A stretch of DNA of 64,000 nucleotides from contig OZ237762.1 in the NCBI GenBank assembly GCA_965178125.1, positions 496,001-560,000 of the forward strand, read 5' to 3'. The translations under genes were made by a program, and so were the position numbers. How positions within the stretch are numbered: the stretch's first letter is position 1; each line of letters opens with the position of its first letter. The notes beneath the pieces were generated by a model. That model worked only from the letters and a program-made list of their open reading frames with translations, did not search any database and was not told where the DNA came from. Below are positions 4,115 through 62,271 of the stretch, one piece after another. Origin of the DNA: Bilabrum cf. latius (taxonomy: Eukaryota).

Positions 4115-5764
4115 TCAACTGGTCTCTGCCTCCTCATCTTCCCCTGCAGCAGGACTCCCGTTCCCGGCCCCACCTTTCGCTGCCCCGCCACCCCTGCCCC
4201 TGCCGCTGCCCCCGCCCCCGGACCCGTCGTTCAGGCCCAGGTCGATCAGCGAGGCCTCCACACCAAGAAGTTCCGCGTGCGCGGCGCCAGCCGCATGAGC
4301 GGCTCGCAGCTCGGCGTTGGCCTTCAGGGCCTCCTTCAGCCTCTTCATGTGGCTCGTCATCATGTCCTTCAGCTCCTGCGCGCCCTTGATGTCCACCTCC
4401 AACCTCTGCTTGCCGCCCACGCCACGGACCGTCAGACCCAGCCTTCCCTCCATCGGGGCCGACCACCCCGCGATGGATTTGTAGTCCCACGTGTTGATGC
4501 AGCGGTCCGGGTCCTCTGGGGCGAGAACGCTGACGTCAGTGGGACCCACGCGGAGAAGCAGCTCGTCGGGAACGGTAGAGGTAGCGTCTCGCACGACGGT
4601 CGCGGGGCGGGTGATGCTGATTTGTTCCCCGGCCTGCACGCATCGGAGGGCTCGCAGCCACGCCGCCTGCACTTGTTCCCCGGTCCTGCCTCCCTTGGCC
4701 CCGTCTAGCATGCCCCCATCCGCCTTGGCTGCAGGCTCTTCAACGGGCCACGCCAGGATGAAGGTGAAGCTCGGCTGACGGGGGTTGTCCTCGCTAGGCA
4801 CTCGGCTGTAGGGGTAATTCACGCTCTCGGGGTACAGAAGGAAGGTTCGCTCAGGGGTAACCACCTCTACGACCTTTCGCTGGACCCCGTTGACCTCCTG
4901 TCTCTCGTTTCCTATCCTGATTCCGTCCTTGTCCACCCTCCTAAGGTCGATGTGGCCCTTTAGATCCTCTGGGTTGGTCCCCTGCTTGGCGTAGTACAGC
5001 AGGAACGCCCCCTGGGGTACTCTGTAAAGGACCATGAACCTCCTCTTCCAGCTCGCACGAGTGAACAGCCCGGCCTCGCCCTGCTTCCAGCACCAGCCGA
5101 ACATGACCACGTGGCCCTTGACCGATACAGGCGGCATTCGGTACACCAGCTTCTTGATCGTGTCGTCGGATGTGTCGGCCAGGGAGGCGAGCACACCGGA
5201 ATGGTCGGCTGCGCCCGCTGTGCTCGCCCCGGAGGCAGCACCGCTGTCCTTGGGCGGCTCAGCGGCCGAGCCTGATCCCGCGCCAGAGCTAGCGCTAGAT
5301 GAAACACCCTCAGGTTTTTCCTTTGCAGGACTTCCGTCTCCTTCTTCCTTGCTTTCGTCGGCCACGGGCGAAGGCCCCTCCTTGCTATCGTCCTTTGCAC
5401 CGTCCTCAGAAGCGACCAGGCTGCCCTCAGCGGACGGGGCAGCCTTGCCGTCGTCATTACTGGATTTATCGGATTCTTCGGGAGCGTTCTACTCTTTTTC
5501 TTGGGAGCTATCGCCCTCTGGGTCTGCTTTGGATTCACCATCCGCAGCGCCACTGCCGCTCCCTTCTGTTGCTGTTTCATCTCCACCACCCTTTGAGGAT
5601 GTTGTCAATTTCGCGCCAGAGTCTGATTCATCCGCGCCAGCCCCAGATGCACCGCTTGCTGCGTCCCTAGCTGCCTCGCTGCTCTCCTTCGCGGGATCCG
5701 CCGCTCCAGGCTCGGGCCCGGGTGCATCCTCCGCCTTGGTTGGCTCAGCGTCGGTTGACGACAT
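4115..5764 (-). CDS. PH-domain protein with acidic disordered N-terminus and a second PH/PTB-like domain
   Basis: PH signature GWCWKQGEAGLFTRASWKRRFMVL...LKGHIDL...RTFLL. The N-terminal acidic ORF (ATG 5764) joins in frame through the TAG at 5489-5491 with unchanged composition. Ends in TGA. Confidence 0.75.
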
Positions 5765-6327
5765 ATTCTCAGAGAATGGATGCTCGATAATTGTTCCGAT
5801 TCGATGCAACGGTCGCCAGAGGGCAACGGATTTGGGTCAGTGTGGATCTCGACTGAGCAGTCGTGGTCGCACGTTTTCCGGTTGTAACCAAAAGATGAAG
5901 ATAAATAGAGTGCCAGGATCCAGCCCTTCGAAGATCCCGCCGTATTTCTACCCTTCGAGCGAATGGCAGCTGCAGCGGGATCTGGAGATGATGGAAAGGT
6001 GTCTTCTGCTGCTATCGGCGCCACCGGAGGCCCAACCGTGAAGCTGAGCAATGGCCTAGACATGCGTGAGCAATGCTACACGTGACGCGTTGCGAAGTAG
6101 TGCGGCCAGAGGACCGCAACCTCCTTATTTGTTTGATTGGCCGATTGAAATCGATTTTAGTTTGATGTTCTATTGTCGTTGGCAGGCATGTGAATGCGTC
6201 AGGAAAACACAACAGCACCGTATCACAGCATCTGCAACTGCGATGTCCTAGTTACCTTGTCATGCCAGTACTGTTTCAATACAAACCAAAGCGTCAGAAC
6301 TTTACTTATAAACACATGCTTTCGCAG

Positions 6328-7229
6328 CTATTCTGGGCTTCGGGACCTTCCGAGCAGAGCCTGGGGTTGTGGGGGAGTCCGTGAAGGAGGCCATCAAGCT
6401 GGGCGTGCGACACATTGATTGCGCTGCCATTTACGGCAACGAGAAGGAAATCGGAAGCGCCCTGCAGGATTTGTTCAAGGAAGGCGTCGTGAAGCGCGAG
6501 GACCTCTGGATCACGTCCAAGCTCTGGAACACGGACCACGACGAGGAGAACGTGAAGAAGGCGTGCGAGCAGACCATCGCCGACCTCCAGTGCGAGTACC
6601 TCGACCTTTACCTGGTCCATTTCCCGCTCGCATTCGAGCATACGGGGATCGGCTCCCCAGGTTTCAAGCTGGACGACGAGGGCAAGTGCAAGATGGCCCG
6701 CGTGCCTCTGCACGTGACGTGGGGTGCCATGGAGAAGCTCGTCGAGGGCAAGCTGGCGAGGTCCATCGGCATCTCCAACTACCCGTTCATCATGTTTGAG
6801 GATGCCATGGCATACGCCAAGATCAAGCCCGTGACCAACCAGATCGAGGCTCACCCCTATTTCGCGAACGACTGGTTTTGCTCGTGGTGCAAGAGGGAGG
6901 GCGTCCTCATCACGGCCCACACGCCGCTAGGAGGGGCCAAGGCCAACGCGGAGTGGCGAGGCGCGTCCGAGTCGCCGCTAGACGACCCGGTGATCAAGGG
7001 CATCGCCGAGAAGCACGGCAAGTCCGCGGCCCAAGTGTGCATCAGATGGGCCATCGACAGGGGCACAGTCGTCATCCCCAAGAGCACCAAGCCCCACCGC
7101 ATTAAGGAGAACTTTGACGTGCTTGATTTCAAGCTGAGCGAGGAGGAGGTGGCCGCCATCACGGGCCTCGACAAGAAGCAGAGGTCCAACAAGAGCGGTC
7201 GCGCGTGGGGCATCAAGTTCCAGGCCTAA
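6328..7229 (+). CDS. Aldo-keto reductase (main exon; short 5' exon(s) not resolved)
   Basis: Motifs ILGFGTF, RHIDCAAIYGNEKEIG, REDLWITSKLWN, DLYLVHFP, SIGISN, NQIEAHPY, IPKS. Acceptor ttcgcag ends at 6327. Ends ...WGIKFQA-TAA, which shows TAA acting as a stop. Confidence 0.93.
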
Positions 7230-7508: not shown

Positions 7509-9131
7509 TTAAGTCCTATCCAGCGTCACCAGGACCAGCCCCCTGATCCCCAGCACCTCTTCCATCAAGGCCAGCCCTCCCTCCCCCTCCAGCAGCCGCA
7601 CCTGTTCCTCACCGAGTCCCTGCAGCAGGAACAGGGGAGAAAATAGCACCTTCCTGCGGGTCGCAGCTTGTTTCTGCTACTCAGTAGGGCTAGCAGTATC
7701 CTTGATGCTGACACGAGCGCAATCGGTGCTGCCCCTGGATGTGGACGACTGTTGGTGTGGAGGGCTCTGGATGCGGCCTGCTGCAGGTGGGGCGCTTGAC
7801 GGTGCTTTAGCTGGAACTAGCCCACCATGAGTGGGATTACGTGCTGCTTCCATCTCCAATCCGTTTGCTGATGCATTTCCAGCTTCGAACGATGCATCGG
7901 ACGGTGCCTGCCAGTGGATCGATGCCCATGCCTTGGCGTGGACCCGCCCGCGAGAGCCGGACGAGTTGGCATGCATCGCTGCACGGCTAACCGAGCTTTC
8001 AGCAGACAAAGCATCATTGCTAGACTTGTATTCTTTGCACGGCACCCGCATGGTGGATGCGTCACAGGTGATTGCCAGGACTCGTGAGGTTGTTCGCATC
8101 GGCGGCCTTCCTCCAGCGGTTGCTACTTCCGGCAGACGGATGGGCTGAATCTGCACCGCCAATTTATCCCCCCACGGTACGCATTGATGTGATATCGTCG
8201 CTTCAACCGAGGCTGCGCAGTCAATCTCACCGATAGATGCAAACTGTGTCGTACTGGATCCCATCGAGTAGCTACCGGTCAGATCGTGGCTGGCTGCGTC
8301 ACTATGCCCAGATTCAGTTGCAGCAAAACTCTTGAGTGTATCAACGGGTTCGGCTGACCGCTCTGTCGTTCTTGCTGGCGCGGGACGCATTGATTTCACG
8401 CCTGACGTTCCAACTGCAACTGCTGGCATACCTGTGCAGCCAGCGGGGGAGCTCGAAGCTACAGTGCCACATTGCATAGATTTAATCCCGCATTGTACTG
8501 ATCTTGTACTTGAGGTGGCTCTCTGCCATTCCAAAGCGGTGGGACCCTTGAACAGGCCCCTAGCTGTAGCAGACCTCTCTGCAAACCGCCCATTTTCGGC
8601 CCGAGAATCGCCATACATAATCGCATTGCGGGTCAGAGGGGCCTGTTCCTGCTACAAAACAATCTAGTGATGCGAGCTAGCGGCATGATGCTTTAAATTT
8701 TGAGCTTGGCCGACCTAAACACCTGATTCGCCGCACTCTCCGCGTTGCCGCAGCGCCTCGCTGTATCCTGCATTGCTCGTGCCAAACGAGCCGGCTATAA
8801 GGAGCTGTGGCTTAGCATCAAATACCGTGCTATATGCGATTACTTTTAGGTTGGTGCATGCATCGCTGAGACCACCAGTTGTGGCAGCCCCACCGCCAGC
8901 AGCCTAGGCCGGCCGATCTCCGCATGCTGGCACGCGGGATTGTTGCTGCGCCGTGTGCCACGGGGCCGCGTACAGGTTCCCTTGCAGCCAGAGTTCGAGT
9001 AAATTAGCGTCTTTTGGAGTTGGTTGGAAGAAGCAAGAGCTCTCGCTCGTGCGCGTGGCTCCAAGCACAACTGATCGGGCGATCGGCGCGGCATCACCTC
9101 GACTTGTCTTCTCCTCCCCAGCTCCCTGCAT
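7509..9131 (-). CDS. Unknown family member 1 (CFFQP...SPLF/EEVLG family), 540 aa with TAG read as sense
   Basis: N-motif VVLGATRTSESSCFFQPTPKDANLLELWLQGNL, mid-motif VIAYSTVFDAKP, C-motif SPLFLLQGLGEEQVRLLE...MEEVLGIRGLVLVTL. One frame, interrupted only by TAGs. Ends in TAA. Confidence 0.75.
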
Positions 9132-9413
9132 GCTCGATGCCCAAAACTATACAATCCAAAGAGCTTAATTTGAATCAAACTGACAAGGTATCCGCTTTTA
9201 AAAGTGAGATGGACCGCTTCTGAAGCAAGGATGGTGAAGAATTTGCGGGCATGTCGATCCGATACATCAAGCAAAACCCGGAAGAGGGAGAGGCACAGCC
9301 ACTGGCAAGCCGCAAGTAGCGCGGTGACGCGTCACATCCCATTCGGTACGCCACCAACCCTGCTGCGCCTGCTAGCAACAATGCGAATCAAGTATCGCAT
9401 GGTCGCATACCTC

Positions 9414-11000
9414 TTAGGAGCGTCCAGACCCGTCCAGCGTCACCAGGACCAGCCCCCTGATCCCCAGCACCTCTTCCATCAAGGCCAGCCCTCCCTCCCC
9501 CTCCAGCAGCCGCACCTGTTCCTCACCGAGTCCCTGCAGCAGGAACAGGGGAAATGCCCTGACGAGGAACAGTTCATGTTTCTGCGTTTTCTCTTCGTGC
9601 CTTGTGCCGGCAGCAGCGTGGGCAGGCACCAAGTCGTGCACCTCACAGTCTCCCACGGTGTCTCGCCATGGGGTGGTTGCTGCTGCTCTGGACCCGGCAT
9701 GCTAGCCACACCAGCCAGCTCGCCCGGCTCCAGCTGCGCCCAGCGGGCCCAGTGAAGTGATGCAGCGTGCTAGCACTTCTGCCTTTGGAAAGGAAACGCA
9801 CGGATCGAGCAGGAGCTCAAACCCCGGCATTGCATCCACACTTCCTGGGTGTGTGCTGGGCTAGGAAGCTGCTGTTCCAATGTAGCGAGCCGATCCAGAG
9901 CTCGTCGAGGAGCTGGTCGACAGTGCGACAGGTTCATGTGAAAACGAGCGAGTTGTGCCCTGGCTGTCGATTGCCTCTTCACTTGCAGCCCCACCTGTTG
10001 AGGCGCGCGGAATCGGATCGAGCGGTGCGCTTCTTCTGCCTGCGCTGCAATGCGAAGATTCTCCCGCTGGAACTTTGAGCTCTTCCTGGCTAAAGCCAGA
10101 ATCTGGCAGTATCATGGTGGCCAGTGCCTCCGCTTGCTCTGAGCTCGAAGGGCACGATGGGGGCGAGCAGCCTGCGCCACGCGGAGGTGGTGGCCTGGAC
10201 CGGCGCACGGCTCTGCAGCCCGACAACCAGACGGCCTGCCCGACAGTTCGGACGCTGCTCTTTTTCAGCGATGAACGCAATGCGTTGACGTCGTTGTGCA
10301 ACATGCTCCCGTTGAGAGGTTCGTATGGAGTGCTGGTTCCTGGTATGGCGCGGCTGGCCGGCCACGGCTTCTCTCCGTGCAGCTTGCCGCGCGCATCCTC
10401 CATGTGTGCAGGGGGTGACGTACCCGCTTGCTCGCCCACGGAAGGTATGTGGCGGGAGACCGGAGCACGGTTTGCGTCAAAGTCACTCGCAAAAGCGCCG
10501 TATGAACAAGCCTCCTACGCTTTGAGCGCACCGGGTGGCTCGGCGGGTCTGCCTGCATCCAGCCGGTGCCCGTCCGTCTGACTGCTGTGCCTCGTCCAGC
10601 TTTCGCGGGCTTTCGCGGGGATGCCAGTCACAGCGATGGTCCATGGCTTCGATTCGATCTCGGCTGCGTAAGAAAGTGCCCGAACGCGACCACGGCCGCT
10701 CTCTCCGGTGACTTCGGCAGCTCGCTCGACCGGAGCAGGGGTGCTAACGCCGCTCGAGTCTGCGCCTGCCGCGTGGCTTGGAGCACCAAAGGCACGAAGC
10801 TTCAAAGCCTTCCACGCACGAGGGTTAAGATTATCATTCATCCACCGCTAGAGAACGTTTGCGTCCCCGGAGGTAGGCTGAAAGAAACACTAGCTTTCTC
10901 GAGTTCGTACGGCCGCGAAAACAACAGCAGATTCGCGCTCGTCACCAAGATCCAAGCGATTTCCAGCCGAGCTGCGGCTGTCTGGCGCCTCCATTATCAT
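9414..11000 (-). CDS. Unknown family member 2
   Basis: VVFAAVRTRES*CFFQPTSGDANVL*RWMNDNLN, then ALSYAAEIESKPW, then FPLFLLQGLGEEQVRLLE...MEEVLGIRGLVLVTL. Single frame with TAGs only. Ends in TAA. Confidence 0.75.
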
Positions 11001-11723
11001 TTGAATGGCCCACCACGCCTCAGATGAGCCGTCTTGTTGCAACAGGGACGAACAGAATGGTTTCAGCCACGTCACCACGGGGCATACGTGTCCAGCAATG
11101 GCTGAGGCTACGTCCAGTATATTGCAGCAGCGCACACGTTACAGACCCGCACGCTACCATACCCGTAAATCGTGGCTATATATTGTGGTGGTTCGGGTTC
11201 GTCGCCACGCGGATGCAAGCTGGAGTGCCAGTGCAGCCAGTTGACACACAGTGCACTGGCAGTCTGTAGACTTGAGTGCCTCAAGCACACCAGCAAGAAC
11301 GTAAATCTGATATCAATTTCAGCATGCAATACCATCGCTCCGGTCCAGCGAAACCAGAACCAAGCCCGTCATCCCAAGCACCTGCTCGAGGATGCCCAGC
11401 CCGCCATTGCCCTCAAGCAGCTCCAACTGCCTCTAACTTAGGCCCTCCAAAAAGAATAGGGGTGAGACCTTGACTTCAAGCTATTCATCACCACCGTGTC
11501 CGCCGAAAGCATCCTCTGGGGCGGCCGAGCGACACTTCGAATCCGTCGGCCCCTCCCCGGGCCGTTTCGACCACCGGGAGGATCCATGCATAACTGCGCC
11601 ACCAGAGCGCCCGTTATCGCCAAGATTCGATGAGGAGCGCAGACTCGATTTGAGAGCCAATCTGTAGCCTGCCGATAAATCGCTGCTCCTGGTTGAGGCC
11701 ACATTCTTCGTCGTCGATTTGAG
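10843..11723 (+). repeat. ~880-bp direct repeat, left copy (right copy 21181-22067)
   Basis: Near-identical sequence starting caccgctagagaacgtttgcgtcc at 10843 and 21181. It contains the 5' end of family member 2, the intergenic region and the 3' end of member 3. Confidence 0.92.
11319..11723 (-). pseudogene. Duplicated 3' fragment of family member 3
   Basis: Encodes the C-terminal SPLFFLEGLS...LEQVLGMTGLVLVSL motif but has no N-terminal part. It abuts the ALAS-like sequence. Confidence 0.7.
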
Positions 11724-11818
11724 AGTCGATCCGCGGCGGCGGGGGCTTTACTTCTGCTGCCGGGGAGCATGGGCCGCATGTCGGGCAAGGGGAGGGAATA
11801 CAGCAAGGAGGCGCGTTA

Positions 11819-13551
11819 GTGTCTCGATACGAAGCCGGTTTCAAGCACGCCATCAGCTTCATCCGCCGCGAGGGCAGGTACCGCATGCTCCGCACCTTGG
11901 AGAGGCACCAGGCGAGGTCTTCCGTACATGACGCTGCATGGGGAGCAGGGAACAGCAGAGGAGGGAGCGCAGGAGGGCGAGACGAACGCACAACCCGAGG
12001 CCAGGGAGATCGTGGGCTGGTGCTCGAACGACTACTTGGGCATGGGCCAGCACCCGGAGGTGATCCGGGCGGCCGTGCAGACTGCAGTCGAGCAGGGCGC
12101 CGGGGCTGGTGGCACTCGAAACATCAGCGGCACCAACTGCGAGCACGTGAAGCTGGAGCAGGAGCTGGCAGACTTGCACTACAAGGGTGACGCGCTCATT
12201 TTCTAGTCGTGCTACATGGCGAACGACGCCGTCCTAACCACGCTGGCCAAGGAATTCCGCGGGCTGTACACCTCTGACGAGATGAACCACGCCTCGATGA
12301 TCCAGGGGATCAGGCGCTCGGGGGCGCCCAAGCACATCTACGGGCACAACGACGTGGAGCACCTGCGCGAGCTGCTGGCCAAGGCAGACCCCAGCACTCC
12401 GAAGCTGGTGGCATTCGAGTCGGTCAAATCGATGGAGGGCACGGTGGCGCCCATCCACGCGATCTGCGACCTGTGTGATGAGTTCGGGGCCATGACCTTC
12501 TGCAACGAAGTGCACGTAGTGGGGCTCTACAGGGACACGGTAGCGGGGGTGGAGGAGAGGGACGGCGCCATGGATCGGCTCGACATGATCACGGGGACTC
12601 TTGGTAAGGCCTACGGTGTGGCGGGGGGATACGTGGCTGGGAGCGCTGCCATGGTGGACGCCATGCAGCTCATGGCCAGCGGGTTCATCTTCACCACGGT
12701 CATGCCCCCGGCCAACGCAGCGGCTGCCACTGCCTCTGTCGCCCACCTGAAGAGATCCACCTGGGAGCGCCGCTTCCTGCACGCCAACTCGCAGCACCTG
12801 AAGCGGCTCCTGGTGGAGGCGGGCATCCCCGTCATGGACTCGGTCTCGCACATCGTGCCCGTGCTGGTGGTAGACGCAGCCAAGGCGCAGGCAGCCTCGA
12901 GGCTGCTGCTGGAGAAGCATGGCATATACATGCAGCCCATCAACTACCCCACGGTGCCCCGAGGCACGGAGCGGCTCCGCATGACCCCGACCCCCTTCCA
13001 CTCCGAGGCGATGATGAGGCAGCTAGTGGAGGCGCTGGGGCAGGTGTGGACAGAGCTGGGGCTGTCAAGGTCTCGCGTCTATCCCTCGGGCACCAAGGAG
13101 TACGCGGCAGTGCCCGTATCCCTCGGGCACCAAGGAGTACGCGGCAGTGCCCGTATCCCTCGGGCACCAAGGAGTACGCGGCAGTGCCCGTATCCCTCGG
13201 GCACCAAGGAGTACGCGGCAGTGCCCGTGTCCCTCGGGCACCAAGGAGTACGCGGCAGTGCCCGAGGAGGAGCACCTGCCGGCGGTGGAGTGGAGCGGGC
13301 CCGTGCAGCGGGAGGACGAGGACGTGTCGGCGGTGGAGCGGGAGAGGCACGAGGCCAGGGCGAGGGAGTTCCACGAGCAGGCGAGCGCGAGGGGGCGGGG
13401 CAGAGAGGTGCAGGGCGCGGCCGATGCGCTGCAGGATAGCGCGCTGTGGTGGGCGGGGGCGCAAGTCACAGCGAGGGGAACTGCGGCTGACGGGACGAGG
13501 GAAGCAGCAGCAGCGGTTGCTGGCTCAGACCGAGCGCAGGGCCAGATGTGA
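11819..13551 (+). pseudogene. ALAS: 5-aminolevulinate synthase (Shemin pathway), apparently decaying copy
   Basis: Motifs [73 protein letters not shown]. Lesions: frameshift near 11910; NEVHVVGLYR instead of DEVHAVGLYG; a 37-bp x5 array shifts the C-terminus out of frame. Confidence 0.8.
13079..13263 (+). repeat. Tandem repeat, 37 bp x 5
   Basis: Unit gtatccctcgggcaccaaggagtacgcggcagtgccc, head-to-tail with no spacers. Confidence 0.95.
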
Positions 13552-16475: not shown

Positions 16476-16559
16476 TGCGAGTAGAGAATGAAAAATGTCC
16501 TTGAAATCGTGGACAGGTACAAGCTCGGGGAGATTAGGGTGCTGTGTACAACGTGTGAT

Positions 16560-17443: not shown

Positions 17444-18364
17444 ATCCGGAGTGATTTCATCGCTTGACGCTTCTACTAGCTGTTTTCAGTCCCTTGTAGT
17501 GAGTCTATTTCGACTGTATTGCACACTTACTACACACCATCATGGAAAATAAGTAATGCATATTGATAAGTGCGCGCGTAAGCCCCGTATAATTACTTTG
17601 ATTGAGTGTACGGGCCACACAAAGTTGGCGTCTCGGGGGCTCTGGCAGGCCTGCCTGTCGGCGAACCCATCGCTTGACGCTTCTCTCTTTCCGTATCATG
17701 CCTCCAATTAACGCTAATCTCCACCAAATCTTGCCTTGTATGAGTGAAACAGACAGATAGATCCATATAATGTATCAATTTGATCAATCCATCGAAGTTA
17801 CGTGCGACAATTTATGGAAAAGTGGGCTCACTGACGCCGGGCATAGCTGCCCAGTTAGAAGCGCCTTATCTAGCTATCGAGGGTTTTACGAATAGGCCAA
17901 GGATATATTCATGTAAACGAAATGGAAAATCTTGCCGCGCTACTTTGCTTACCAAGTATTGTATCCGTTGTTAGGCAACATGGGTGGTGATTCGAGGCAC
18001 GATTGAGAGTGCCGTCAAGTGTCATACCATGCCGGAAAAAGTCTCTATTTATATCATCTGTGCCCGAACAAAAGCTAGTTCAAACATATGGCGATGGTAA
18101 ACCTGCATTATATGATGCGGACGAGCTAGTGAGCCCTACCAGACTAACCAAGATTCAACTGTTGCGTAAAAAGGGTCAGCACAACATGAATATGAGACAT
18201 AAATGAGACAATTGCTTGCCAACATCTCAATATTGTCCATATAGATCTAGATTCGTGGACGAAATGCAGAGTTATTGCAATCTTTATGCCGAGAATGGCT
18301 CCAGGAGAAGCGTCAAGCGATGGGTTCGCACCGAGAAGCGTCAAGCGATGAAATCACTCAGGAT
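17444..18364. mobile_element. ~920-bp AT-richer element with terminal and subterminal inverted repeats (MITE-like)
   Basis: 17444-17474 is the reverse complement of 18334-18364 with one mismatch. 17661-17685 is the reverse complement of 18305-18329. Both pairs share the core catcgcttgacgcttct. No TSD or transposase recognised. Confidence 0.65.
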
Positions 18365-18371
18365 CTGCTAG

Positions 18372-27203: not shown

Positions 27204-27235
<32 letters not shown>

Positions 27236-42838: not shown

Positions 42839-42954
42839 ACTAGCAATTCGTGGCTTTTGGCAGCTTTTTACAACTTGTGTGGGTGTGTGACAAGGGGAAG
42901 ACCCGCGCATTCCGTCCGCGACACATCGCCGAACCTTCGTTCTCTCTCTCTCTC

Positions 42955-45854: not shown

Positions 45855-46215
45855 GATCCCTGATCGATTCAGATGGGCTAATCTACTTACTAAAGGCTCG
45901 ATTGACTCAAATGAAGTCAAATACAAATGCGAAAATAGACTTTGACTCGCAAGGATGAGATGTGGGCCACTGTCGCGTGCGCGATTAGCTGTAGATCTGT
46001 CGTCTCTGTAAGATGGCCTAATTCTGACAAATGCAGTTTGCAAATACGACGTAGAAATATATGTTTAGATGCGAGTCTGTCCTACCTGGCCGTAGTTATT
46101 GTCCACTTCGGCATCGCACCATTGGTTGTGGTTCCGTTTGGTCGCAATGCCGGTTCCGCTTCCGGGGGTGGGCTCAAAATCATTCAACGATATTACACAA
46201 GCAAACACATTCAAG

Positions 46216-51892: not shown

Positions 51893-52788
51893 AAATTTGC
51901 ACTACTGCTACGATCGTCGGCGCGCAGCCTTACGATCGCGAGTACACAGCCAATATTCTACTCTGCGCACTGCAACTTTCCTGCTTGTTTCGCGGTTGTA
52001 ACCAAAAACGCCGCTATTGGTCGCAAAACGAATCCTTGGCGTGGCCTAGAGCTGCACGACGGCGCCCAAAGTTTGGACTCGTACCACACCTTCCTCTGCC
52101 AGCCGTCCCGATGCAATCCTCACACGACCATTCATTTGCCCAAAGGGACAGCTCTAGCGCCTGCATCATATCGCGGGAGCCACTACGTGCCTGGCCTGAC
52201 TTCGGCATCCACCGGCACACGATGTAGACTACAGCCACTGGAGCTGGAACCCACCACTCCAATGGGTCATAGCCGTGCCTAGTCCACTGTCTCATTGTTT
52301 TGTAGACTACATCTACAACAACCACTTGCCACCAGAGACCAGACCAATGGCCTCGGGATGGGTGCGGGGCCCACACCGCTCACGTCGAGCCCAGCAACAA
52401 CCACCAGCCGGTGGCCCGGGCGCCTGCATCGATGCAAGGCTAGGGATGGCACCAGCAGCACCAGCATCAGCCGGCTCTCAGAGGCATGCCCGGAAAGGCT
52501 GCGGCCACTTGGGGGGGGTCTGATATTTTGTGGACTCAACTCAAAAGCGCACGCTATCACGAAGAAACATCTGGAACGAGGGCCCGGGACCTACCAGACT
52601 TCACGCTTCAGCTACAATGGCCTAAACCACCTAAGCTCCGCCCTGAGTACCCATTTCCCCCTGGGGAGCGTCAGCATTCACGTTCCCTCCGGCGCCCGCT
52701 GCCGGCACCCCGTCCTGCTGCCAGTTCTGAGCCAACCCTGCCTTGACGTTGGCGATCGCCACGGCGAGGTCGTTGTTTTTGCGGCCAC

Positions 52789-53190
52789 TACAGAAATACA
52801 GAAATACAGAAATACATTGTTGGGTTAAGTTACCGAACCCGCCACAGATGCACCATATCTCAGGTGATCACCTGCAGCGGTAGGAGCCCTCATAAGAGGA
52901 CTACAAGACCCCCGACCCTTTCAGACCAAAGGCCCCCCATGTACCGGCCCTGATGTTGGGACCTCCCTTTGTCGCCTTCAAGCCCTCCTTCGCAGCAGTC
53001 CCGGAGCCTTTATTTCGGATATCCGTAGACACACAGGCATACTGTGTGGACCCGGCATTATGCGCGGTCCAGACCCACCACGGAGTGCCCCTCCAGCCTC
53101 CGACGTCACTTCCAGGATCGTCCGGACTCGCGATCCCTCTGAGGGTCGAGCACGCACACAATCATGCTCGTCTCTGGAACTGTCAGCGTA
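52789..53190 (-). mobile_element. Degenerate 3' end of a family-B-related LINE with (TATTTCTG)n tail
   Basis: tacagaaa repeats plus the shared 3' UTR (ggactacaagacccccgaccctttcag). Decayed VGLDRA.CR.H C-terminal coding remnant containing TAA/TGA. Confidence 0.75.
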
Positions 53191-53742
53191 AATATGTGAA
53201 TAGTTCCGAGGCTCCCCCTCCTGGGAGTCTTCCCGAGCTCGGTGTCCCCGGGCCCGGCTGATATAGGTGGCACCAACGGTGCAGAAACCAATCGCCCTGC
53301 TCTCCGGCAGGCAGACCGGCGCCAAAGCATTAGATGCTAAGACTAGGGCTTCAAAGAACCCATTTTCTCCACAAGGGAAGAAATCCCGTGCTGAAATGAC
53401 AGTACGGGCGTCGGAGGCGGTAAACACCTTCCCGACCGTTTGGTCGTAGACCTTCCCGCGCACATCGGCGAACGGGCCATAACCACTTCGCAGCCCCCAC
53501 AGGGATCTCGAGTGGAATCGAGAGCTATTTAGCTCTTCTTCCGCTGCGCAGACGACACTCCAGGACGCCTGAACAGGGCTGTGCTGCTCAACCAGCACAG
53601 GCACCGAACCCGGTGCAGCCGACAATGCCAATCCAGGCGTCGGCTTCTCCCATCCCATAGGAAGGAAGAATATAGCCAAAGCACTATGTGCTAAGGCTAG
53701 GGCCCATAAAGGGTCCATCTCCCCCACCAGGAGATTGGCCAC

Positions 53743-54562
53743 TACAGAAATACAGAAATACATTGTTGGGTAAAGATTCCACAAGCACCCAGATGCACCG
53801 TTGCCCCCGAAGGAGTTCGAGTGATCACCTGAATCCAGAGGAGTCCTCAAACAAGGACTACAAGACCCCCGACCCTTTCAGGCCAAAGGCCCCCCAATCT
53901 CAGCCTACACCGCCGAGTCCCCTTTATTCGCCATCAATGTGGTCCCCCACAAGCCCTCAGCCTGATGCCTTCACAGGGAGAAAGCATACAGGTGCGGAGC
54001 ATGTGCCCGGCACAAAGCGCGGTCCAGTCCCACATCAGGGTCCCCTGCCGGGACCCACCATTTCCTCCTCCATGACCGTCTCTGCGTCTCACGATCCTTC
54101 AGAGAGGCTAGCATGCACGCGCTCATGCCTTTGGCCCATTGCCTCTCTATGTCCCTTAGCAAGCCGTGGGGCTTAAACATCCGTCGCTGTAGCCGAGCGT
54201 TCGCATTGGTTGCCGCTATCAGCTCTTGCGTGGCCGTGGCGGCAAGAGCAGCCGCCGCATCGCCTCGCATCCACTGCCTGCACGTCAGCTACTCCTGCTA
54301 GCGCAGCTGGTTCCTGATCACCTGCACCACTCGGTTGGCCAGCTCCTTGACAGCTGTCCGTTCCGATGACCGCGCAATCGTACGCTCTATCCGAGTGAGT
54401 GCGTCTTCGACGATTGGCTTGGCCCTGCTGGTGCGCTCCAGCTTCTCGTCCCAAGGGTCCTGAGCGAGAGCTGTCTTCGCCCATGCTTTCCGGAGGGAGG
54501 CAGGGGACCTCCCTCTATTCTGATCCGCATCATCGGGTTGCCACGGTCTCGTTCCGGCATGA
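53743..54562 (-). mobile_element. 5'-truncated LINE family B copy
   Basis: High identity to ~25560-26388 in reverse orientation, with the same C-terminus RAHAPHLYAFSL and octamer tail. Confidence 0.9.
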
Positions 54563-54732
54563 TGGTCGGCCCACTTGCGACCAAATCGATAACGTGCACT
54601 TTATACCGCAAATACCTCAGATTCCCCCCCGGGGTATGAATAGCTTCAATTACGACTTCTGGCGATATTTCGATTGGTTTTACATACTTTATTGAATTAT
54701 TTGGATAATATACCATGCGTTAGAGTTTCGTT

Positions 54733-57700
54733 ATGGTGAATGGGTGCCTGAGCTGCCTAACTTCATTGCTTGCTTTCGTCGTTCACCTCAGTGGCTCGAA
54801 GGCTCGAAAGCCGTTCAGTATGAGCCTTGGCGACCAATTTGGTAATCCTCTTCCGGAAACTACTGTAGGCTATCTGCTGAGTGTTGATGATGCTAACAAC
54901 AATTCCAACTTCATATGCGAAGACGTGGTGGATTCGCAAAGTGCACTTGTCGACACTTGCACCAGTCTCGGGTTCAATCATTCGGGAGCCTGGTGGATAG
55001 CGGCGCCTTGGCTTGACAGGATAGCCTCAATAGGCATTGCGGGAAACGGTTCGTGCTCGTCGACCGACCCAGTCCTGCTCTCCTGTGGCGATTTGCCACG
55101 ACCGCCGTCACACCCGGTGACTCCGCTATGCAAGAGATTGAAGGATCCATCACCCAAATTAAGCCCATGGTGTGCAGCATATATCCCATTTCAGCCCTAG
55201 ACCTTTGTTGGACCAGCCGAGGTACACGTGGATGTGCCATGGCCACCTCGACCATCCGACAGCCAAACCAACCGTTTGCTGCAGGTGCCCGCGGGCTCGC
55301 GCATATCACCAACATCGGGCATCCTGTGGATTTCTATCACTCCACAAGTACACTCAGACGGCAGGTGGCCACTGGCGAGTGCTACGGGCAACTACTCCCT
55401 GCCGTGGCCGGCCCACGAAAATGCGACTGTGAGCGATTTGGTGGGAGAGACCGGAGCGGCTTCTCTGCTGATCCGGGTGGAGGTGCAGGGGTCACTGCTG
55501 CACCATGAGGGCGACTTTGGGGGGCTCATGGGCGGGGGCAAGGTGGACGTATGGCGCTCGAAAGGGTCCACCATGATCCAGGTGCCGCAAGGACCCGAGG
55601 CACTTGGGTACAACTGGACGGGGCCCACCACTGCTGAGCTTGAAGACTGGGAGCTGCATCCTAGCTGCGGTCGAGTTGAGATTATGCGGGCTGCGAAAGG
55701 CGTGCTGTCCGTGGCTATTCCGTACTCTCTGCTGTTTTCGAGCCAGTCGGTTGTGGATACACTTGAGTCACGGCTGGAGGTGCGAGCCGCTGCCGAGGTG
55801 ATTGGGCACGATTTCGGAGCAGGGACGCTGTCGGAGCCAAAAACTCCAAGGCATTGGAACTCAAGCCATTCGGCACACTTGACTGTTGCTCAGCTACAAC
55901 AAGCCCCTGGAAACAAAAGCAATTCAAGCCATTGGGATTCCCACTGGTGTGCCGGCAGTCGGGTGGTGCAGGTGGCGGCAGGGTCTCGCCACACGTGTGC
56001 ACTGCTGGAGGGCGGCCGGCTGCGGTGCTGGGGCGAGGGTTTGGATGGCCAGCTAGGCACAGGCACACTTTCTGATGTTTTGGATCCATCGGACCTGAAT
56101 GCCGATGTGGATGTGGACGGGCGCGGCAGTCGGGTGGTGCAGGTGGCGGCAGGCTCATCACACACGTGCGCGTTGCTGTAGGGTGGCCGGCTGCGGTGCT
56201 GGGGATCGGGATAGTATGGCCGGTTGGGCACAGGCAGAACTGCCACTGTGCTGGATCCATCGGACCTGGATACCGATGTAGATGTAGACGGGCGCGGCAG
56301 TCGGGTGGTGCAGGTGGCGGCAGGTGGAAGCCATACATGTGCATTGCTGGAGGGCGGCCGTTTGCGATGCTGGGGCGAGGGGTCCTCGGGCCAGCTAGGC
56401 ACAGGCACGTTGTCCGATGTGCTGGATCCATCGGACCTGACTGCCGATGTGGATGTGGACGGGCGCGGCAGTCGGGTGGTGCAGGTTGATGCAGGCTTTG
56501 GCCATGCCTGCGCATTGCTTGAGAGCGGCAGCTTTCGATGCTGGGGTTCCGGATCGAGCGGGCAGCTGGGAACCAATGACACTAGTGATGTTCTGGCTCC
56601 ATCAAGTCTTGCTAACGATGTTGATATAGGTGGTCGGGACAGCCGGGTGGTGCAGATTGCAGCAGGTGGTTTCTACACGTGTGCGCTGCTAGAAGACGGC
56701 AGGGTGCGGTGCTGGGGTACCGGGCAGAATCCGATTCTCGGGGACGACACGCACGATGATATTTTTGTCGATGATATGTTTGTCGATGATATTTTTGTCG
56801 ATGATGACAGCAGCAGCGGCGATGACAGTGCGGTGGATCTGCAAGGTCGCGACGTGGATGTTGATGGTCGTGGCACTCGAGTGCTCCAGTTATCTGCTGG
56901 ATCGTACCACACATGTGCATTGCTGGAGAGCGGGCGAGTTCGATGCTGGGGAGACGGTCGTTACGGTCGACTTGGAACTGGTAGCACTGACAATGTCGAA
57001 CATCCATCTGAATTGGCGAACGATGTGGATTTAGACGCGCGAGGCAGTCGGGCAGTATTCGTAGCTGCTGGATCATTCCACTCGTGCGCATTGCTGGAGG
57101 GCGGCCGGGTGCGATGCTGGGGCGGGGGCATCCATGGTTAGCTGGGTACAGGTAGTGCTGATGATGCCCCGAATCCATCATTTTTGGCTGGCGACGTGTA
57201 CGTAGACGGGAGGGGCAGCCGCGTCCTGCAAGTGGCGGCAGGACAAGCGCATACGTGTGCGTTGCTGGAAGGAAACCATGTTCGATGTTGGGGCAACGGA
57301 TAGCAGGGATAGCTTGGAGTTGGTATTCGCACAAATTTGGTGGATCCATCCGTAATGCTTCGTGATTTGATAATGGATAGTCGTGGCAGTCGAGTAGTGC
57401 AGGTGGCGACAGGCTCATTTCACACATGTGCTCTGCTGGAGGGCGGCCGATTGCGGTGCTGGGGCTATGGATAGTACAGATAGCTTGGACTGAGCAACAA
57501 TGCCAATGTTCTGGATCCAAGGCAATTATCCAGCGATGTAGATGTAGACGGGCGTGGCGGTCGGGTGGTGCAGGTGGCGGCAGGTGGAAGCCATACATGT
57601 GCATTGCTGGAGGGCGGCCGTTTGCGATGCTGGGGCTATGGATTGCACGGCCAGCTGGGCACAGGCAATATTTCCTTGGCGTTGTCTGTATCCAGTCTGA

Positions 57701-60700
57701 CTGCCGATGTGAATGTGGACGGAAAGGGCGGTCGCGTGGTGCAAGTCGCAGCAGGGGAGGAACACACGTGTGCGTTGCTAGAAGGCGGGAGGCTGCGGTG
57801 CTGGGGCAGGGCGCAGTATGGCCAACTGGGCACTACCAGTCGTGACACCGTGTTGAATCCGTCTAGCTTGACTGGCGACGTGGATGTGGATGGTCGTGGT
57901 AGTCGAGTGCTATTGGTGTCAGCCGGGTCGCACCACACATGTGCGTTGCTAGAAGGCGGGAGGCTACGATGCTGGGGCAATTCATTCTTTGGTTAGCTGG
58001 GTACAGGTGACTTTAATAGTTGGATATCACTCCGTTAGATTTCTGGCGATGTAAATGTAGACATGCATGGCAGCCGAGTCATTTAGGTCGCCGCAGGGCC
58101 ATTCCAATCCTGTGCGGTGCTGGAGGGCGGCCGGCTGCGATGTTGGGGAAGGGGTTGGAGTGGATTACTAGGCACTGGCAGCACTGAAAACGTGCTGGAT
58201 CCATCAGACCTTAACGGTGACGTGGATGTGGACGGGCGCGGCAGTCGGGTAGTGAACGTCGTGGCTGCATTTGCACATGCCTGTGCGGTGCTGGAGGGCG
58301 GTCGGCTGCGATGCTGGGGCCAGGGAGACAATGGCCAGCTGGGGATTGGGTCCACATCTGCAGTGTATGACCTCTCACTGCCTGCGATATCTGATGGATC
58401 CCTCCGTTTGCATGTCCGGACGCGAAAGTAGCTGCCAGCGTGCCTGTGCACGCATTTTGGACGCTGCCTATCCCATCTAGAGCTGCAGCCGTGGTGCCGG
58501 AGCATTTCCGTTCGGGCTGGATCGAGCGTAGTGCTGCCACCGAAAGACCGATGGGCATCATCAGGCGTAAGGATTCATGCTAGTCTATCTGTAATCGGCG
58601 GAAGCCTCCAAGTTACTGGGCAGTACGTTGAGCCGGAGCCTCTTTTGCTCGGTCGGTCTTTGTTCCATATGGTACTAGACAACGGCCTGAAACTTCGAAA
58701 GGGCTTGGTGACTCCGCGAATCATTGGAAACTCTGTGGTCCAAACGATAGGTGGGCCCATTCGGTTGCAGGTTCCAGTTCTAAGGCAAGCGGCAGCCCTC
58801 GATGACGTATCGCAGTACCTTCGAGTGGGCAGCAAGTCACTGGTCTCCTGCCAGATCTTGCGCCAAGATCTGGTGGAATGCGAGATTTCCCCCGGCTTGG
58901 GCACCCAGATCCCTGTAGAATTTCTGCAGCAAGATGGCCAATGGGTTCAAGCTGGCACAGCTTCATACGAGGCGCCTGTGGTAACCCAGGTTTTGGAAGA
59001 TCCCGACAGTGCTGAGGCGATGTTACTCAGGGGGAAAGGGTTTGGTCCGAATATGACGTCCGACTAGTTGCAGATAGCCGTGGGCTTGTACGACTGCAGT
59101 CCTGTTCAATGGTTATCCGACGACCAGCTCAAGTGCGTGCGTCCTTCCGTATCAGACCAGGTTTTACCACTGATCGTAACGGCAGGTGGGCAGGCATCTA
59201 ACCCAGTATCCATTGTATTTCCAGCTCCCGTCGTGACCGCTGCGACTCTCGTTGTCAGCCGAGGGCGTGAAGCACGCGCGAACGTACAGGTGAATGGTTC
59301 TGGATTTGATGGGCGTCTCCTCAATCAAGTTACGGTCGGCGGGGTAAATTGCGCGCAGATCACTGTGGTTTCCCATTAGGTATTGGAATGCAAAGGACTT
59401 TCCGTGCCCCTGGCCTGGCGGTCCCAGGACGTGGAGGTGTCCTTCTTGCGTGACCTGAGCCCGAGCAGTGAGCCCGTTGTTGCAGCTGGCGGGGGCGGGC
59501 TACTGTCAGTGCCGCTGCCGTCCACGCGGCCGCTGACTCGTGTGTCGGGCCTGGGAGCCTTCCGGCCCGGCGATGATCCCGGCGTGGTGAAGGTGTCATT
59601 CCTGGCCCTGTCGATTGCCAGCGAGGGCCAGCTCATGCAGGAGCTGGGCCCGGACTACGCCGCCATCCACGAGGAGGTGCAGCTGTTCCGCGTGTGCGTG
59701 TGGACCGGCAGCAGGAGCAACTGCTCTGCGGGCGGGTCGAGTCTGCTAGACCGGGCGGAGGGTCTGTCGGGTCGTGCGTCGTTGGGCGTGCCTTTGCTTG
59801 GCATGGCGAGCACTGGTGCCATGGTGTCGGGATTGGACATCACCGACGCTGCGCTCTTGTCGCGAGCTGCAGGTGTGATGTCATAGTGGGGTGGAGCGGA
59901 GGTGGAGCTGCATCATGTGCAGGTGCGTGGTGCTTATCATGGGTCTGTGAATGTGTCTGTGCAGGGTGTGGGATCGAGCGGTGCATCCGGCGAGTGGACC
60001 GATGTAGCCTTGAATGTGTAGCAGCAGTGTGCAGTAGGTTCAATGCGAGCTGCAGATGGCGCTGACTGTATTCTTTGTGATGATCAATTGGCCGTGTGTT
60101 GCGGTTAGCCCCAGAATCGTGTGCCGCCTCGTGCTGGGGTGTGGCAACTACCTGGTAATGTTGAATTTAAATTTCGGTTCTTGCCGTGCGCCATTCAGGG
60201 TGGGGCAAACAGGTGCGGTGGTGTATCACCCGGGAACGACTCGTGCGAAGCACTAGCCATGCCCCTTGAAGGATTTCTGTTCCAAGATGATGGCTACTTG
60301 GATTGGATGCCTGATTCTATGCGCAGGTCACGGGATGCTTTTTTGGCTGAGTCTGTGCCGCCTTCCGAACGATTCAATGAGACCATGGAGTACGGTTGTC
60401 AAGTTGGCACGGTTGGCACGCTGTGCGGTGGCTGTCGGCGTGGGACCGTGTGGAATCCTACAGTGGAATCATGCTTGCAGTGTGAACCCCCCGGCTCGAA
60501 CCGGGGCGTAGCCGTCGGCATACTCCTTTGCGTGATGCTTGCAATCGCTGCACTCGTTGTCGTGAACCACGGTGCTGCAAGCAGACGCTTGCACACGTTT
60601 GAAAGGTAGCGGAGGTCTGCACCCGGAGACAAGAAGGAAGGTGGGGCTCAAGGTGACAATTTCGGGGCGGAACTGCGGATCTTCAACGTCATGCGGGAGC

Positions 60701-62271
60701 ACCTGCAGCTGTTTGCAGTGGTTGGGGCATTCCAGCAGCTGCCTCCATCAATGCTCGAAGGCGCTGGAGCTCTTCTCGAGGTAGCCACTGCGGTTTTTTC
60801 TGTGGGGTACAGCAACGCTGACTCGATCAAGTGCGTGCTGGCCGAGCTCGGGGATGCTGACAGATCGTCAGATCTTCTAAATGGCATTCCAGCGACACGA
60901 TCCGAGCCATTCCTGCTTCTGTGCATGTGGATAATTGTGCTAGCTTTGTTGGTTGTATGGGTGGCGCTGGTACAAGCTGCAATAATGTTTGTGACCGCAA
61001 CGTGCCTTGCTGAATCCTGCGGGTAGACAGTTGGGGGCAAGATAGCGTGGGTTCTAGGTATCTATACCAGCAGTGGTGCACCCCCTCCTCGAGACATCCA
61101 AACGACACCTGCTCAGTAGGGACCGAGGTCTCAAGGTGAACGTGTTTTCGTATCACCGCTTGCCGTTGAGGCGCATGGAGGCCTGGCTGAAGCTAGCAGC
61201 GCAAGTATTGCGAGTGTTAGCACAGCGCATTCAGTGCATCTCGATTTGTAGACGCATCCGGGCAGTACCATTGCTTTTGAGCCGCGCTGCTTGGATCGCT
61301 CTCTGCTTGGCATGACGGTGCTTCTACAGCTCGTGTATGTTTTCACAACCCAGGCTGCTTTGCGGCTGTTGCTTCCATACAGAACTCAGCAGCTGCCCAG
61401 CGCGGACGGGTCGTCTAGACTGGCTGCTGACCTGGACGTTGTAATGGGGGCAGCAGTAGCCATCGGTGGAGAGCAGATGAATAATTTGCAGCCGCTACTT
61501 GGCCTTGGTCTTGCTGTGCTACTGCTGTTTTCTGCTCTCGGTCCGACACTGGTCGCTGCCGGTATCTGCATGACCATGGAGACTAACGCGACAGTGACAT
61601 ACATCCTGTTCCCAATCACGGATGCATTGCACCCGCAGACCAGGTGGTGGGCGCCTGCTCAACTTGTATTCTCCAGTTTGCTGCTTGTTGCCGTTGGTGT
61701 TTCTTCCACTCTTTCACTCACTGTAAGTACCCAGGTTTTCCTGGTTTTCATAGTTGTGAAGCTGGCAGTAGAGATGCTCGTCGTACCGTACAAGCAACCG
61801 TTGGAGCTGTATGCACGTGCGCTGTCCCAAGTTTTAATTGTGTGTACCGTTGCTTGCATGGTGTGCAATCTCCTGTTGTAGCAGCAGGTAGAGGAAGGCG
61901 AGGCATCGCAAGGCAAGGGCTTTGTTGGTCTCGCGTGGCTTGCGGCCACATTAAACTTTCTGGCATTGTCGCTTGGCGGGCTATATATTCTTAGACGGGT
62001 CATATTGCTCGCTTGGAGTTACGCCAGCGCACTCTGCTGCGGCCGTGCCAGGCAGGGCTTGGTTGACTCTAGTCGGGCTACTACCGGGCCAACGGTTGCT
62101 GCCAGTACTATCGGGGCACAGTCCGGTCGTGCGCGACCAGATGAGTCTACCCAAATTGGAAATTCGCTGCGGAGTTTTGCTTGGTAGTCTTCTCCTACCC
62201 GTGGTTCAGACCATCGCAGCACAAATGGCCAGACTATGGGGGAGTCAACACTGGCTTCTGCTAGGGCTTGA
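54733..62271 (+). CDS. Giant single-exon receptor-like protein (2512 aa): signal peptide, 14 RCC1-like repeats, IPT/TIG-like domains, Cys-rich region, ~7 TM helices
   Basis: All ORF-track pieces from 54733 to 62187 share one frame and are separated only by TAG (about 23, hand count); the first TGA is at 62269. Repeats VVQVAAG..HTCALLEGGRLRCWG.G..GQLG recur mostly every 171 bp. IPT-like LRGKGFGP and VNGSGF; C..G..GTLCGGC..G; several hydrophobic helices. Confidence 0.85.
55957..58370 (+). repeat. 14 coding RCC1-like repeats (~171 bp / 57 aa period)
   Basis: RCWG motif counted 14 times between ~56024 and ~58320. Confidence 0.9.

Follow-up and report, generated by a model that had tools for sequence, protein, structure and literature searches.

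We analysed a 64,000-nucleotide stretch of DNA from Bilabrum cf. latius (GenBank assembly GCA_965178125.1, contig OZ237762.1, positions 496,001–560,000 of the forward strand; hereafter the window, with coordinates counted from its first letter) and found that TAG very probably serves there as a sense codon, most likely for glutamine, whilst TGA and TAA terminate translation, a pattern that corresponds to NCBI translation table 15. This assignment had been proposed in a preliminary reading made from the sequence alone, and it is supported by the length of the open frames, by RNA contigs, by protein alignments and by the position of gene ends.

In-frame TAG codons

When TAG was read as a residue, the window became a dense run of recognisable eukaryotic genes. 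One of these, at 54733–62271 on the plus strand, encodes 14 RCC1 repeats, a TIG domain and a multi-pass membrane protein region (Pfam WD40_RLD 4e-148, RCC1_2 3e-131, TIG 2e-07). Its 7.5-kb frame of 2,513 codons contains 23 TAGs, the number estimated in the sequence-only reading, has no internal TAA or TGA, and closes with TGA. All 23 lie after the first Met, at 55198, 56179, 56212, 57139, 57301, 57310, 57472, 57481, 57994, 58036, 58084, 58429, 59065, 59377, 59884, 60019, 60106, 60607, 61024, 61117, 61249, 61879 and 62185. Out of frame, TAA and TGA together occur at 2.3 % per codon, and the chance of a frame free of both is ∼1e-25.6 over the length of this gene and ∼1e-17.9 over the 1,761 codons of an OSCA/TMEM63-like channel gene described below. 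The longest frame in the window grows from 2,529 to 7,560 nt once TAG is taken as sense, and stays at 2,529 nt if TAA is taken as sense.

Across the window we delimited 21 long frames (15,368 codons), each bounded by TAA or TGA from stop to stop. Twenty of them carry TAG, with 107 in-frame occurrences overall, about seven of which precede the first Met or sit in a probable intron. TAG is evenly distributed within conserved genes and accounts for ∼0.7 % of all codons and ∼14.5 % of putative Gln codons, and because its frequency in frame (0.70 %) is similar to that out of frame (0.81 %), it behaves as an ordinary codon. Frames that bear recognisable domains are interrupted by TAG only, and Pfam domains extend across the TAGs in the RCC1 gene and in four others, all of which end in TGA. 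These specify a 5-aminolevulinate synthase (ALAS; 11697–13490, plus strand; TAGs at 11817, 12204 and 13437; Aminotran_1_2 1e-68), a surface protein with FG-GAP repeats (14074–16533, minus strand; TAGs at 16414, 15787, 14686 and 14299; FG-GAP 3e-35), a GH56 hyaluronidase-like protein with an EGF-like C-terminus (23511–24833, minus strand; TAGs at 24543 and 24255; 3e-75) and an NDQ-motif microbial rhodopsin, of which the last exon or exons lie at 34749–35774 (plus strand; TAGs at 35088 and 35700; Bac_rhodopsin 1e-25). Readthrough had been noted to restore a transmembrane helix, the GH56 fold and rhodopsin helix B, and the analysis agrees. The GH56 match runs across its two TAGs from profile position 7 to 333 of 335; the C-terminal transmembrane helix of the FG-GAP protein, which follows six FG-GAP repeats and a Ser/Thr/Pro stalk, is reached only by reading through TAG 14299; and TAG 35088 falls within helix B of the rhodopsin.

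TAG codons in DNA and RNA contigs

In order to address assembly error, editing and splicing, a concern already raised in the sequence-only reading, we compared the region 44100–54700 with public sequencing runs (four runs from four studies, all stored as contigs). This region includes the OSCA/TMEM63-like channel gene, which has a Q-rich C-terminal tail (46075–51949, minus strand; Pfam PHM7_cyt 5e-09, and RSN1_7TM at 1e-05, below the Pfam cut-off) and for which a search against the PDB gave no match. In run X1, a single unspliced contig spans 44100–52434 with 0 differences from the window, and the contigs of all four runs are free of differences wherever they cover that interval; parts of the compared stretch have no cover in X5 or X8. 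Two of the runs, X5 and X6, which derive from two studies, were recognised as cDNA through their spliced contig. Each holds one of ∼5.4 kb that extends from 46089 (X5) or 46075 (X6) to 50793 and on to ∼51949, skipping 108, 129, 128 and 83 nt at junctions that read GT..AG on the minus strand. The corresponding exons (46075–50793, 50902–51211, 51341–51366, 51495–51589 and 51673–51949) join into one open frame of 1,761 codons (1,742 from the first Met), with nine TAGs (50272, 47740, 47602, 47596, 47440, 46735, 46705, 46600 and 46498) and a terminal TGA at 46216–46218; the contigs end ∼130–140 nt past this TGA, representing the 3′ UTR. As the spliced contigs show 0 differences and 0 gaps and keep all nine TAGs, the TAGs of this gene cannot be put down to assembly error, editing or splicing. 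The codons are TAG rather than CAG in the DNA and in the mature mRNA alike, as observed in two independent studies.

All four introns of this gene (83–129 nt) are clustered at its 5′ end, where they enclose a 26-nt micro-exon (51341–51366), and the remaining 4.7 kb forms one exon. Because the transcript contigs are spliced at four short GT..AG introns, the window is eukaryotic nuclear DNA, and its high-copy LINE-like repeats are consistent with this. DNA near-identical to 46216–50898 also occurs in runs filed under three organism labels in three studies (sampled-word share 0.98–1.00), with a share of 0.59 under a fourth label.

The residue specified by TAG

We assessed the residue along three mutually independent lines, namely external homologues, paralogues and repeats within the window, and composition around the TAGs. 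Taken together, these point with high, if not complete, certainty to Gln.

Amongst external homologues, the column that contains the rhodopsin helix-B TAG (35088) holds Q in 117 and L in 3 of 120 sequences, including relatives at 95, 81 and 52 % identity, and the equivalent position is Gln in PDB entries 8jh0 and 6rfa. For the RCC1 gene, 4,280 repeats from 150 unrelated proteins were aligned. Four TAGs of this gene stand in the context G-TAG-LG (57139, 57310, 57481 and 57994, the third being an addition to those previously listed), and the matching GQLG column (4,102 external cells) is Q in 70.8 %, R in 9.5 % and E in 7.1 %. Of the other RCC1 TAGs, one lies in a column with Q at 23.6 %, one in a column with Q at 20 %, and four in two variable columns. 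According to PDB and homologue alignments, one of the GH56 TAGs sits in a variable column and the other in a K/E/N column.

Within the window, the sister repeats of the RCC1 gene place RVI-TAG-VAAG (58084) in an RVVQV column that is Q in 10 of 13. In a family of ten paralogous genes (described below), CFF-TAG-P at 23163–23165 on the minus strand falls in a CFFQP column with Q in seven of nine members and R in two, and a VLQxWL column (Q 3, E 2, K 1) contains four TAGs. A decayed copy of a high-copy LINE (approximately 53880–54600, minus strand) reads NQLR-TAG-QE-TAG-L at 54289 and 54298, where the LINE copy at 24850–26154 has Q and Q; the two are 79 % identical over 233 aa. Three TAGs lie inside poly-Q runs in the tail of the OSCA-like protein (47596, 47602 and 46735). 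These motifs had been listed in the sequence-only reading, and all of its coordinates that were checked proved correct.

In terms of composition, Gln shows the strongest enrichment of all residues at distances of up to 8 positions from the 107 TAGs (1.35-fold; within-gene permutation p = 0.0025), and a profile of the flanks scores Gln best at 5.9 bits, with Cys next at 1.9. When non-redundant columns were combined and likelihood was computed per column (22 columns, 30 TAGs), Gln reached 12.1 bits, Ser −2.7 and Glu −3.5, with Leu outside the six best residues. The posterior for Gln was 0.9999, and its margin was at least 8.1 bits on dropping any one column in a jackknife. Alignments thus favour Gln above every other residue, an outcome on which the sequence-only reading had made its proposal depend.

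As a calibration, the simplest and also the clearest one, we counted how often each codon sits in a column in which Gln outnumbers every other residue. This was the case for 10 of 23 TAGs (43 %), compared with 38 of 63 CAG (60 %) and 10 of 25 CAA (40 %). The corresponding counts were 3/117 for Glu codons (GAR), 3/48 for Lys codons (AAR), 0/43 for TCG, 1/58 for TTG, 0/54 for TGG, 0/24 for Tyr codons (TAY) and 5/144 for CGN. By this measure TAG occupies alignment columns as CAG and CAA do, unlike Glu codons.

TAA, TGA and TAG at gene ends

Terminal codons across the 21 frames are TGA in 18 cases and TAA in three. One TAA ends an aldo-keto reductase gene (AKR; 6312–7229, plus strand; no TAG; Pfam 5e-46), whose product aligns with PDB 7s5f (3e-96) over query residues 6–303 of 305 and chain residues 12–307 of 309. 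Because the alignment reaches within 2 residues of the chain end, this TAA stands where the C-terminus is expected, and two codons beyond it lies another TAA. The other two end adjacent members of the paralogue family (7509–9164 and 9414–11138, minus strand; six and five TAGs), and lie 3 and 6 residues past the conserved C-terminal block. Were any of these three TAAs read through, the protein would grow by more than 40 residues. The expectation that TAA closes these three genes where their relatives end was therefore borne out.

For two of the frames there is validation that does not depend on stop codons, from Pfam for the RCC1 gene and from RNA for the OSCA-like gene. Together (2,513 + 1,761 codons) they contain 32 TAGs (23 + 9) and 0 TAAs, where ∼15 TAAs would be expected at a CAA/CAG ratio of 0.46. 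They are likewise free of in-frame TGA, even though, out of frame, TGA (607/30,736) outnumbers each of the other stop triplets. With regard to UAA, these observations support, with moderate confidence, a role as terminator and not as a sense codon.

In none of the 21 frames is TAG needed as a terminator, although 21 genes are a sample small enough for a minority of genes ending in TAG to go unnoticed. The C-terminal tails of the paralogue family agree, with TAG ahead of the TGA or TAA in 0 of 10. The rhodopsin gene has a TAG 26 codons ahead of its stop, and since the 95 % identical orthologue continues to the same end, this TAG must be read through. TAG is also not depleted towards gene ends, with 12 of 107 in the last tenth. 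At the base that follows in-frame TAG (+4), the share of C is 40 %, compared with 30 % for CAG, 23 % for CAA and 24 % overall, and that of G is 22 %, compared with 36 % for CAG; all four bases occur, and TAG differs from CAG plus CAA with chi-square p = 0.006. C at +4 is the weakest termination context, and its excess may represent selection for such contexts.

Evaluation of the assignment and its alternatives

A number of points weigh against this assignment. Gln is the commonest residue in only 7 of the 22 scored columns (13 of 30 TAGs). TAG 12204 of the ALAS gene lies inside the domain in a conserved column with T in 106, S in 13 and Q in 1 of 120 sequences; one RCC1 TAG is in a column that is Glu in 13 of 13 sister repeats; one TAG of the paralogue family is in a column with E 6, N 2 and Q 1; two FG-GAP TAGs stand where the sister repeats have Ser (5/5) and Lys (5/5); and the rhodopsin tail TAG at 35700 corresponds to Gly in the 95 % orthologue. 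The likelihood computed from the window only is tied once the RCC1 repeats are removed, that from external columns only, without the rhodopsin column, gives Thr 3.2 and Gln 2.9 bits, and when real codons were put through the method with 15 columns, only 41 % of subsamples identified CAG as Gln. Furthermore, RNA support covers one gene and consists of assembled contigs only, from which rare variants are dropped; TAA as a stop rests on three genes; the set of 21 frames has zero in-frame TAA and TGA by construction and so is partly circular; and the C excess at +4, the one sign of its kind, could reflect some residual competition with the release factor. It was because the window-only likelihood is fragile and its calibration imperfect that external columns and the plurality test were added. 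The claim that TAG sits at Gln columns stands in that Gln is favoured overall; the number of TAGs in other columns had been understated. Such columns are as expected for a real Gln codon at variable or recently mutated positions.

Of the alternatives, the one we take most seriously, albeit still as an unlikely one, is that TAG has a dual meaning set by position or context, as stops do in Condylostoma and Blastocrithidia, being Gln inside genes and the terminator of some. The mild C excess at +4 and the limited number of genes (about 21), amongst which a minority of TAG terminators could escape notice, leave room for this, and context-dependent codes are described in the available texts of PMC11687900 and PMC12005148. 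Against it stand the absence of any frame, out of 21, that needs TAG to end where homologues or paralogues end, the ten family tails without TAG before the stop, the rhodopsin TAG that the 95 % orthologue shows to be read through 26 codons from the end, the undiminished presence of TAG in the last tenth of genes (12/107) and the occurrence of every base at +4. A code of the table 6 (ciliate/hexamitid) type, in which TAA and TAG both specify Gln, TGA is the only stop and TAA is rare through GC richness, is very improbable. It would accommodate the 18 of 21 frames that end in TGA, and the terminal TAA:TGA ratio of 3:18 equals the out-of-frame ratio of 105:607, so that the ratio alone is no proof of a TAA stop. 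However, with CAA at 0.46 times CAG, ∼15 TAAs should accompany the 32 TAGs of the validated frames and none does, TAA as sense lengthens no long frame, the AKR gene has its TAA within 2 residues of the homologous C-terminus and another two codons on, and two family genes stop at TAA just past their conserved block, with more than 40 residues added by readthrough.

That TAG specifies some other residue, be it Glu (as in peritrichs, Blastocrithidia and the ciliate PL0344), Ser, Thr or Leu, is equally hard to credit. Several TAGs do lie in columns dominated by Glu, Lys, Ser or Thr, Glu comes second when likelihood is computed per instance, and codes with UAG as Leu or Glu are on record in the available text of PMC11687900 (see also PMC10553269). 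Yet in the combined likelihood Gln stands at 12.1 bits, with Ser at −2.7 and Glu at −3.5; of 120 rhodopsin homologues, 117 have Q and 3 have L at the TAG column; Q makes up 71 % and E 7 % of the GQLG column; the flank profile is best for Gln; and genuine codons for Glu, Lys, Ser, Leu, Trp, Tyr and Arg fall in Gln-plurality columns in 0–6 % of cases versus 43 % for TAG. Least probable of all, to the point of being negligible, is that the code is unchanged and the TAGs are assembly errors, edited sites, tiny introns or pseudogene nonsense codons with occasional readthrough. Decaying LINE copies could indeed hold true nonsense mutations, and contigs cannot reveal rare edited variants. Nevertheless, four runs from four studies match the window wherever they cover 44100–52434, spliced contigs keep nine TAGs, pseudogenes would have gained TGA and TAA too, given that CAA and CGA are common (none is present in 2,513 or 1,761 codons), and 107 TAGs are spread over 20 of 21 frames without a fixed context.

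Two further kinds of code were considered and rejected. Those in which all three stops have become sense (Condylostoma, Blastocrithidia, Amoebophrya sp. Kv) do not agree with the lack of in-frame UGA and UAA in the validated frames. UAG as Leu, the code of Rhizaria sp. exLh and the TARA phyllopharyngeans, disagrees with the rhodopsin column, where Leu is 3 of 120, and with the plurality counts, where TTG scores 1/58 and TAG 10/23.

Proposed decoding

We propose that cytoplasmic translation in this GC-rich, intron-poor unicellular eukaryote reads UAG as Gln, with UGA as the main terminator and UAA as a minor one. By analogy with other UAG-reading eukaryotes, a tRNA-Gln(CUA), one base change from tRNA-Gln(CUG), would decode UAG but not UAA, and eRF1 would have lost most of its affinity for UAG whilst keeping UAA and UGA. 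The available texts of PMC5304391 and PMC11687900 describe a CUA-anticodon tRNA as pairing with UAG and not UAA, and as one mutation away from tRNA-Gln(CUG). ARAGORN found no tRNA genes in the 64-kb window, and no Rfam family matched it at gathering thresholds.

Gene content of the window

The window has a GC content of ∼58 % overall, and of 53–62 % per 4-kb bin. At one end of the series of genes, 4115–5836 on the minus strand encodes a PH-domain-like protein (Pfam PH 0.0015, below the Pfam cut-off) with a single TAG at 5489 and a terminal TGA. The AKR gene follows, and the nearest solved structures to its product are plant mannose-6-phosphate (E 3e-96) and sorbitol-6-phosphate (8e-88) reductases. 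As its frame lacks a start Met and the first ∼10 residues, a short upstream exon is likely.

The paralogue family comprises ten copies within 39 kb, all on the minus strand (7509–11138, 21657–23282, 26497–33119 and 36024–46064). Besides the two members that end in TAA, there are eight that end in TGA: one at 21657–23282, with four TAGs including the CFF-TAG-P at 23163; three at 26497–28932, 28946–30688 and 31773–33119, with eight, seven and three TAGs; and four at 36024–38294, 38525–40666, 40823–43354 and 44181–46064, with five, eight, six and three. The members share one conserved block at the N-terminus (..AARRT.RS.CFFQP....VLQ.WL..NL) and another at the C-terminus (SPLFL..GLS..Q...LE.....LE.VLG..GLVLV), separated by a long, variable middle of low complexity. 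Pfam gave no match for any of the ten, and when the family alignment was run against JGI metagenome contigs, none of the 291 pattern matches was confirmed as a relative.

Mobile elements are represented by a LINE-type reverse transcriptase ORF at 18207–20780 on the plus strand (four TAGs; ends TGA; RVT_1 1e-11), by the C-terminal part of a second LINE ORF (24850–26154, plus strand), which served above as the comparison copy for the element at 54.3 kb, and by the decayed copy itself. The reverse transcriptase region gave one weak match in the PDB (E 0.0084 for the protein and 0.013 for the stretch that matched), which was not used. LINE-like repeats occupy ∼52240–54700, where many contigs break and where summed contig depth in run X1 is ∼900–3,200, compared with 22.6 in flanking single-copy DNA; this suggests of the order of at least 100 genomic copies.

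The ALAS frame runs 136 residues past the last column common to most homologues (∼13080–13490). This extension contains a direct duplication of ∼25 residues (YPSGTKEYAAVPVSLGHQGVRGSAR), with the copies ∼42 residues apart, and then a Gly/Arg/Ala-rich tail. C-terminal extensions are present in eukaryotic ALAS homologues too, but are shorter. For the GH56 gene, found here in a protist, 12 database relatives were retrieved at 28–46 % identity; the named ones are from animals, and two are EukProt transcripts without species names, so that they offer no clue to taxonomy.

The NDQ motif of the rhodopsin (RYLNWCIDVPCLLIQ) is typical of sodium-pumping rhodopsins such as KR2, and the structures in the PDB that the protein matches best are those of a xanthorhodopsin and of Na+-pumping rhodopsins. 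As homology begins at frame residue 85–91 (chain residue 38–56), helix A must be in an upstream exon. Amongst the matches listed, the close relatives are three unnamed proteins only, at 95, 81 and 52 % identity; the other 117 are at 34–45 %, with the few named ones coming from bacteria. When the alignment of this rhodopsin clade was searched against metagenomes, the 80 loci kept from 300 relatives were all at ≤43 % identity; neither this search nor the one with the paralogue family yielded DNA of the present lineage.

Source lineage and significance

The proteins of the window were themselves absent amongst the matches listed from the protein collection, where the best ALAS match has 68 % and the best rhodopsin match 95 % identity. 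In an ALAS tree, a quick single-gene version, the window sits on a long branch in a six-row clade with Cafeteria (SH-aLRT 95), beside a clade that contains oomycetes. This gives a weak hint, from sequence comparison, that the source could be a heterotrophic stramenopile near Cafeteria. Public sequencing runs of 2025 from several studies contain this DNA.

In a search of full-text literature, which covers few subscription journals so that a prior description is possible, no account of this kind of code came up for stramenopiles or for a GC-rich non-ciliate. As a code it is already on record, being that of table 15; it is plausible that the lineage is new for a UAG-only Gln code. Tentatively, and as less likely than not, this may be the first non-canonical nuclear code of a stramenopile, or at least of a SAR member that is free-living, aerobic, GC-rich and not a ciliate, with an independent origin of UAG-only Gln and, in contrast to every UAG-only case described, UGA in place of UAA as the main terminator.

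In practical terms, gene callers that use the standard code will break most genes of this organism, given that 20 of 21 frames carry TAG. Its proteins would then be missing or fragmented in databases, which fits the absence of the window's proteins amongst the matches listed from the protein collection. In the available text of the GVMAGs V2 catalogue, alternative codes in giant-virus genomes are treated as a sign of unrecognised host associations (PMC13524828). The window itself is cellular, with spliceosomal introns, LINEs and housekeeping genes. If the tentative reading above were true, the present lineage would be a concrete candidate host for giant viruses that read TAG as Gln. More broadly, UAA and UAG almost always change meaning jointly in eukaryotes, and each new UAG-only case tests whether that coupling is mechanistic or accidental. 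The window would add a lineage of different base composition, in which UGA is the dominant stop and UAG makes up about one-seventh of Gln codons.

Comparison with known genetic codes

Within the available texts of PMC11687900 and PMC5304391, the reported UAG-only cases form a small set, namely Iotanema, Rhizaria sp. exLh and three lineages of phyllopharyngean ciliates, and the main stop in all of them is UAA. Gln is the residue in Iotanema spirale (PMC5304391) and in Hartmannula sinica as well as Trochilia petrani (PMC11687900), and Leu in Rhizaria sp. exLh and in a clade of TARA ciliates (PMC11687900, PMC5304391). Plastid and mitochondrial codes are the subject of PMC6733595 and PMC11412368.

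With the table 6 codes, which those same portions of PMC11687900 and PMC5304391 attribute to many ciliates, hexamitid diplomonads and some green algae, the window has UAG as Gln in common, and there UAG is presumably read through tRNA-Gln(CUA). The difference lies in TAA, which is not sense in the window (0 in frame against ∼15 expected, and three genes that end in it). Amoebophrya sp. ex Karlodinium veneficum resembles the window in being a non-ciliate protist in which UAG and UAA are thought to specify Gln and in-frame stops are kept in transcripts, as related in the available text of PMC12005148 (see also PMC6394959); by the same account its AT content is much higher, and in-frame UAA, UAG and UGA are carried by about half of its genes, whereas those of the window have TAG only. 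It was rejected as the source on these grounds.

Hartmannula sinica and Trochilia petrani, which use table 15 (McGowan et al. 2024), share with the window a UAG that is widely sense and a UAA that is not reassigned; in the available text of PMC11687900, however, UAA is 'ubiquitously the preferred stop codon' of these ciliates, whereas TGA is dominant here. The ALAS of the window groups with stramenopile sequences. A GC-rich contig of 64 kb with LINE elements and GT-AG introns is also, we presume, unlike a ciliate macronuclear genome.

The likeness to Iotanema spirale is in the code itself, as there too only UAG has been reassigned to Gln, with UAA and UGA kept as terminators, and in UAG being a minority Gln codon (∼8 % in Iotanema, ∼14.5 % in the window), according to the available text of PMC5304391 (Panek et al. 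2017). This member of the Metamonada (Fornicata) is described there as an anaerobic flagellate, and an eRF1 change, T32G in GTS, is reported for it. The window, by comparison, has ALAS, a rhodopsin, LINEs and 58 % GC. We take this combination to fit an aerobic organism better, and Iotanema is therefore an unlikely source. A further difference from the account in PMC5304391 is the primary stop (UAA in Iotanema, TGA in 18 of 21 window frames); moreover, the Iotanema work was transcriptome-based, whereas for the window genomic DNA and spliced RNA contigs agree.

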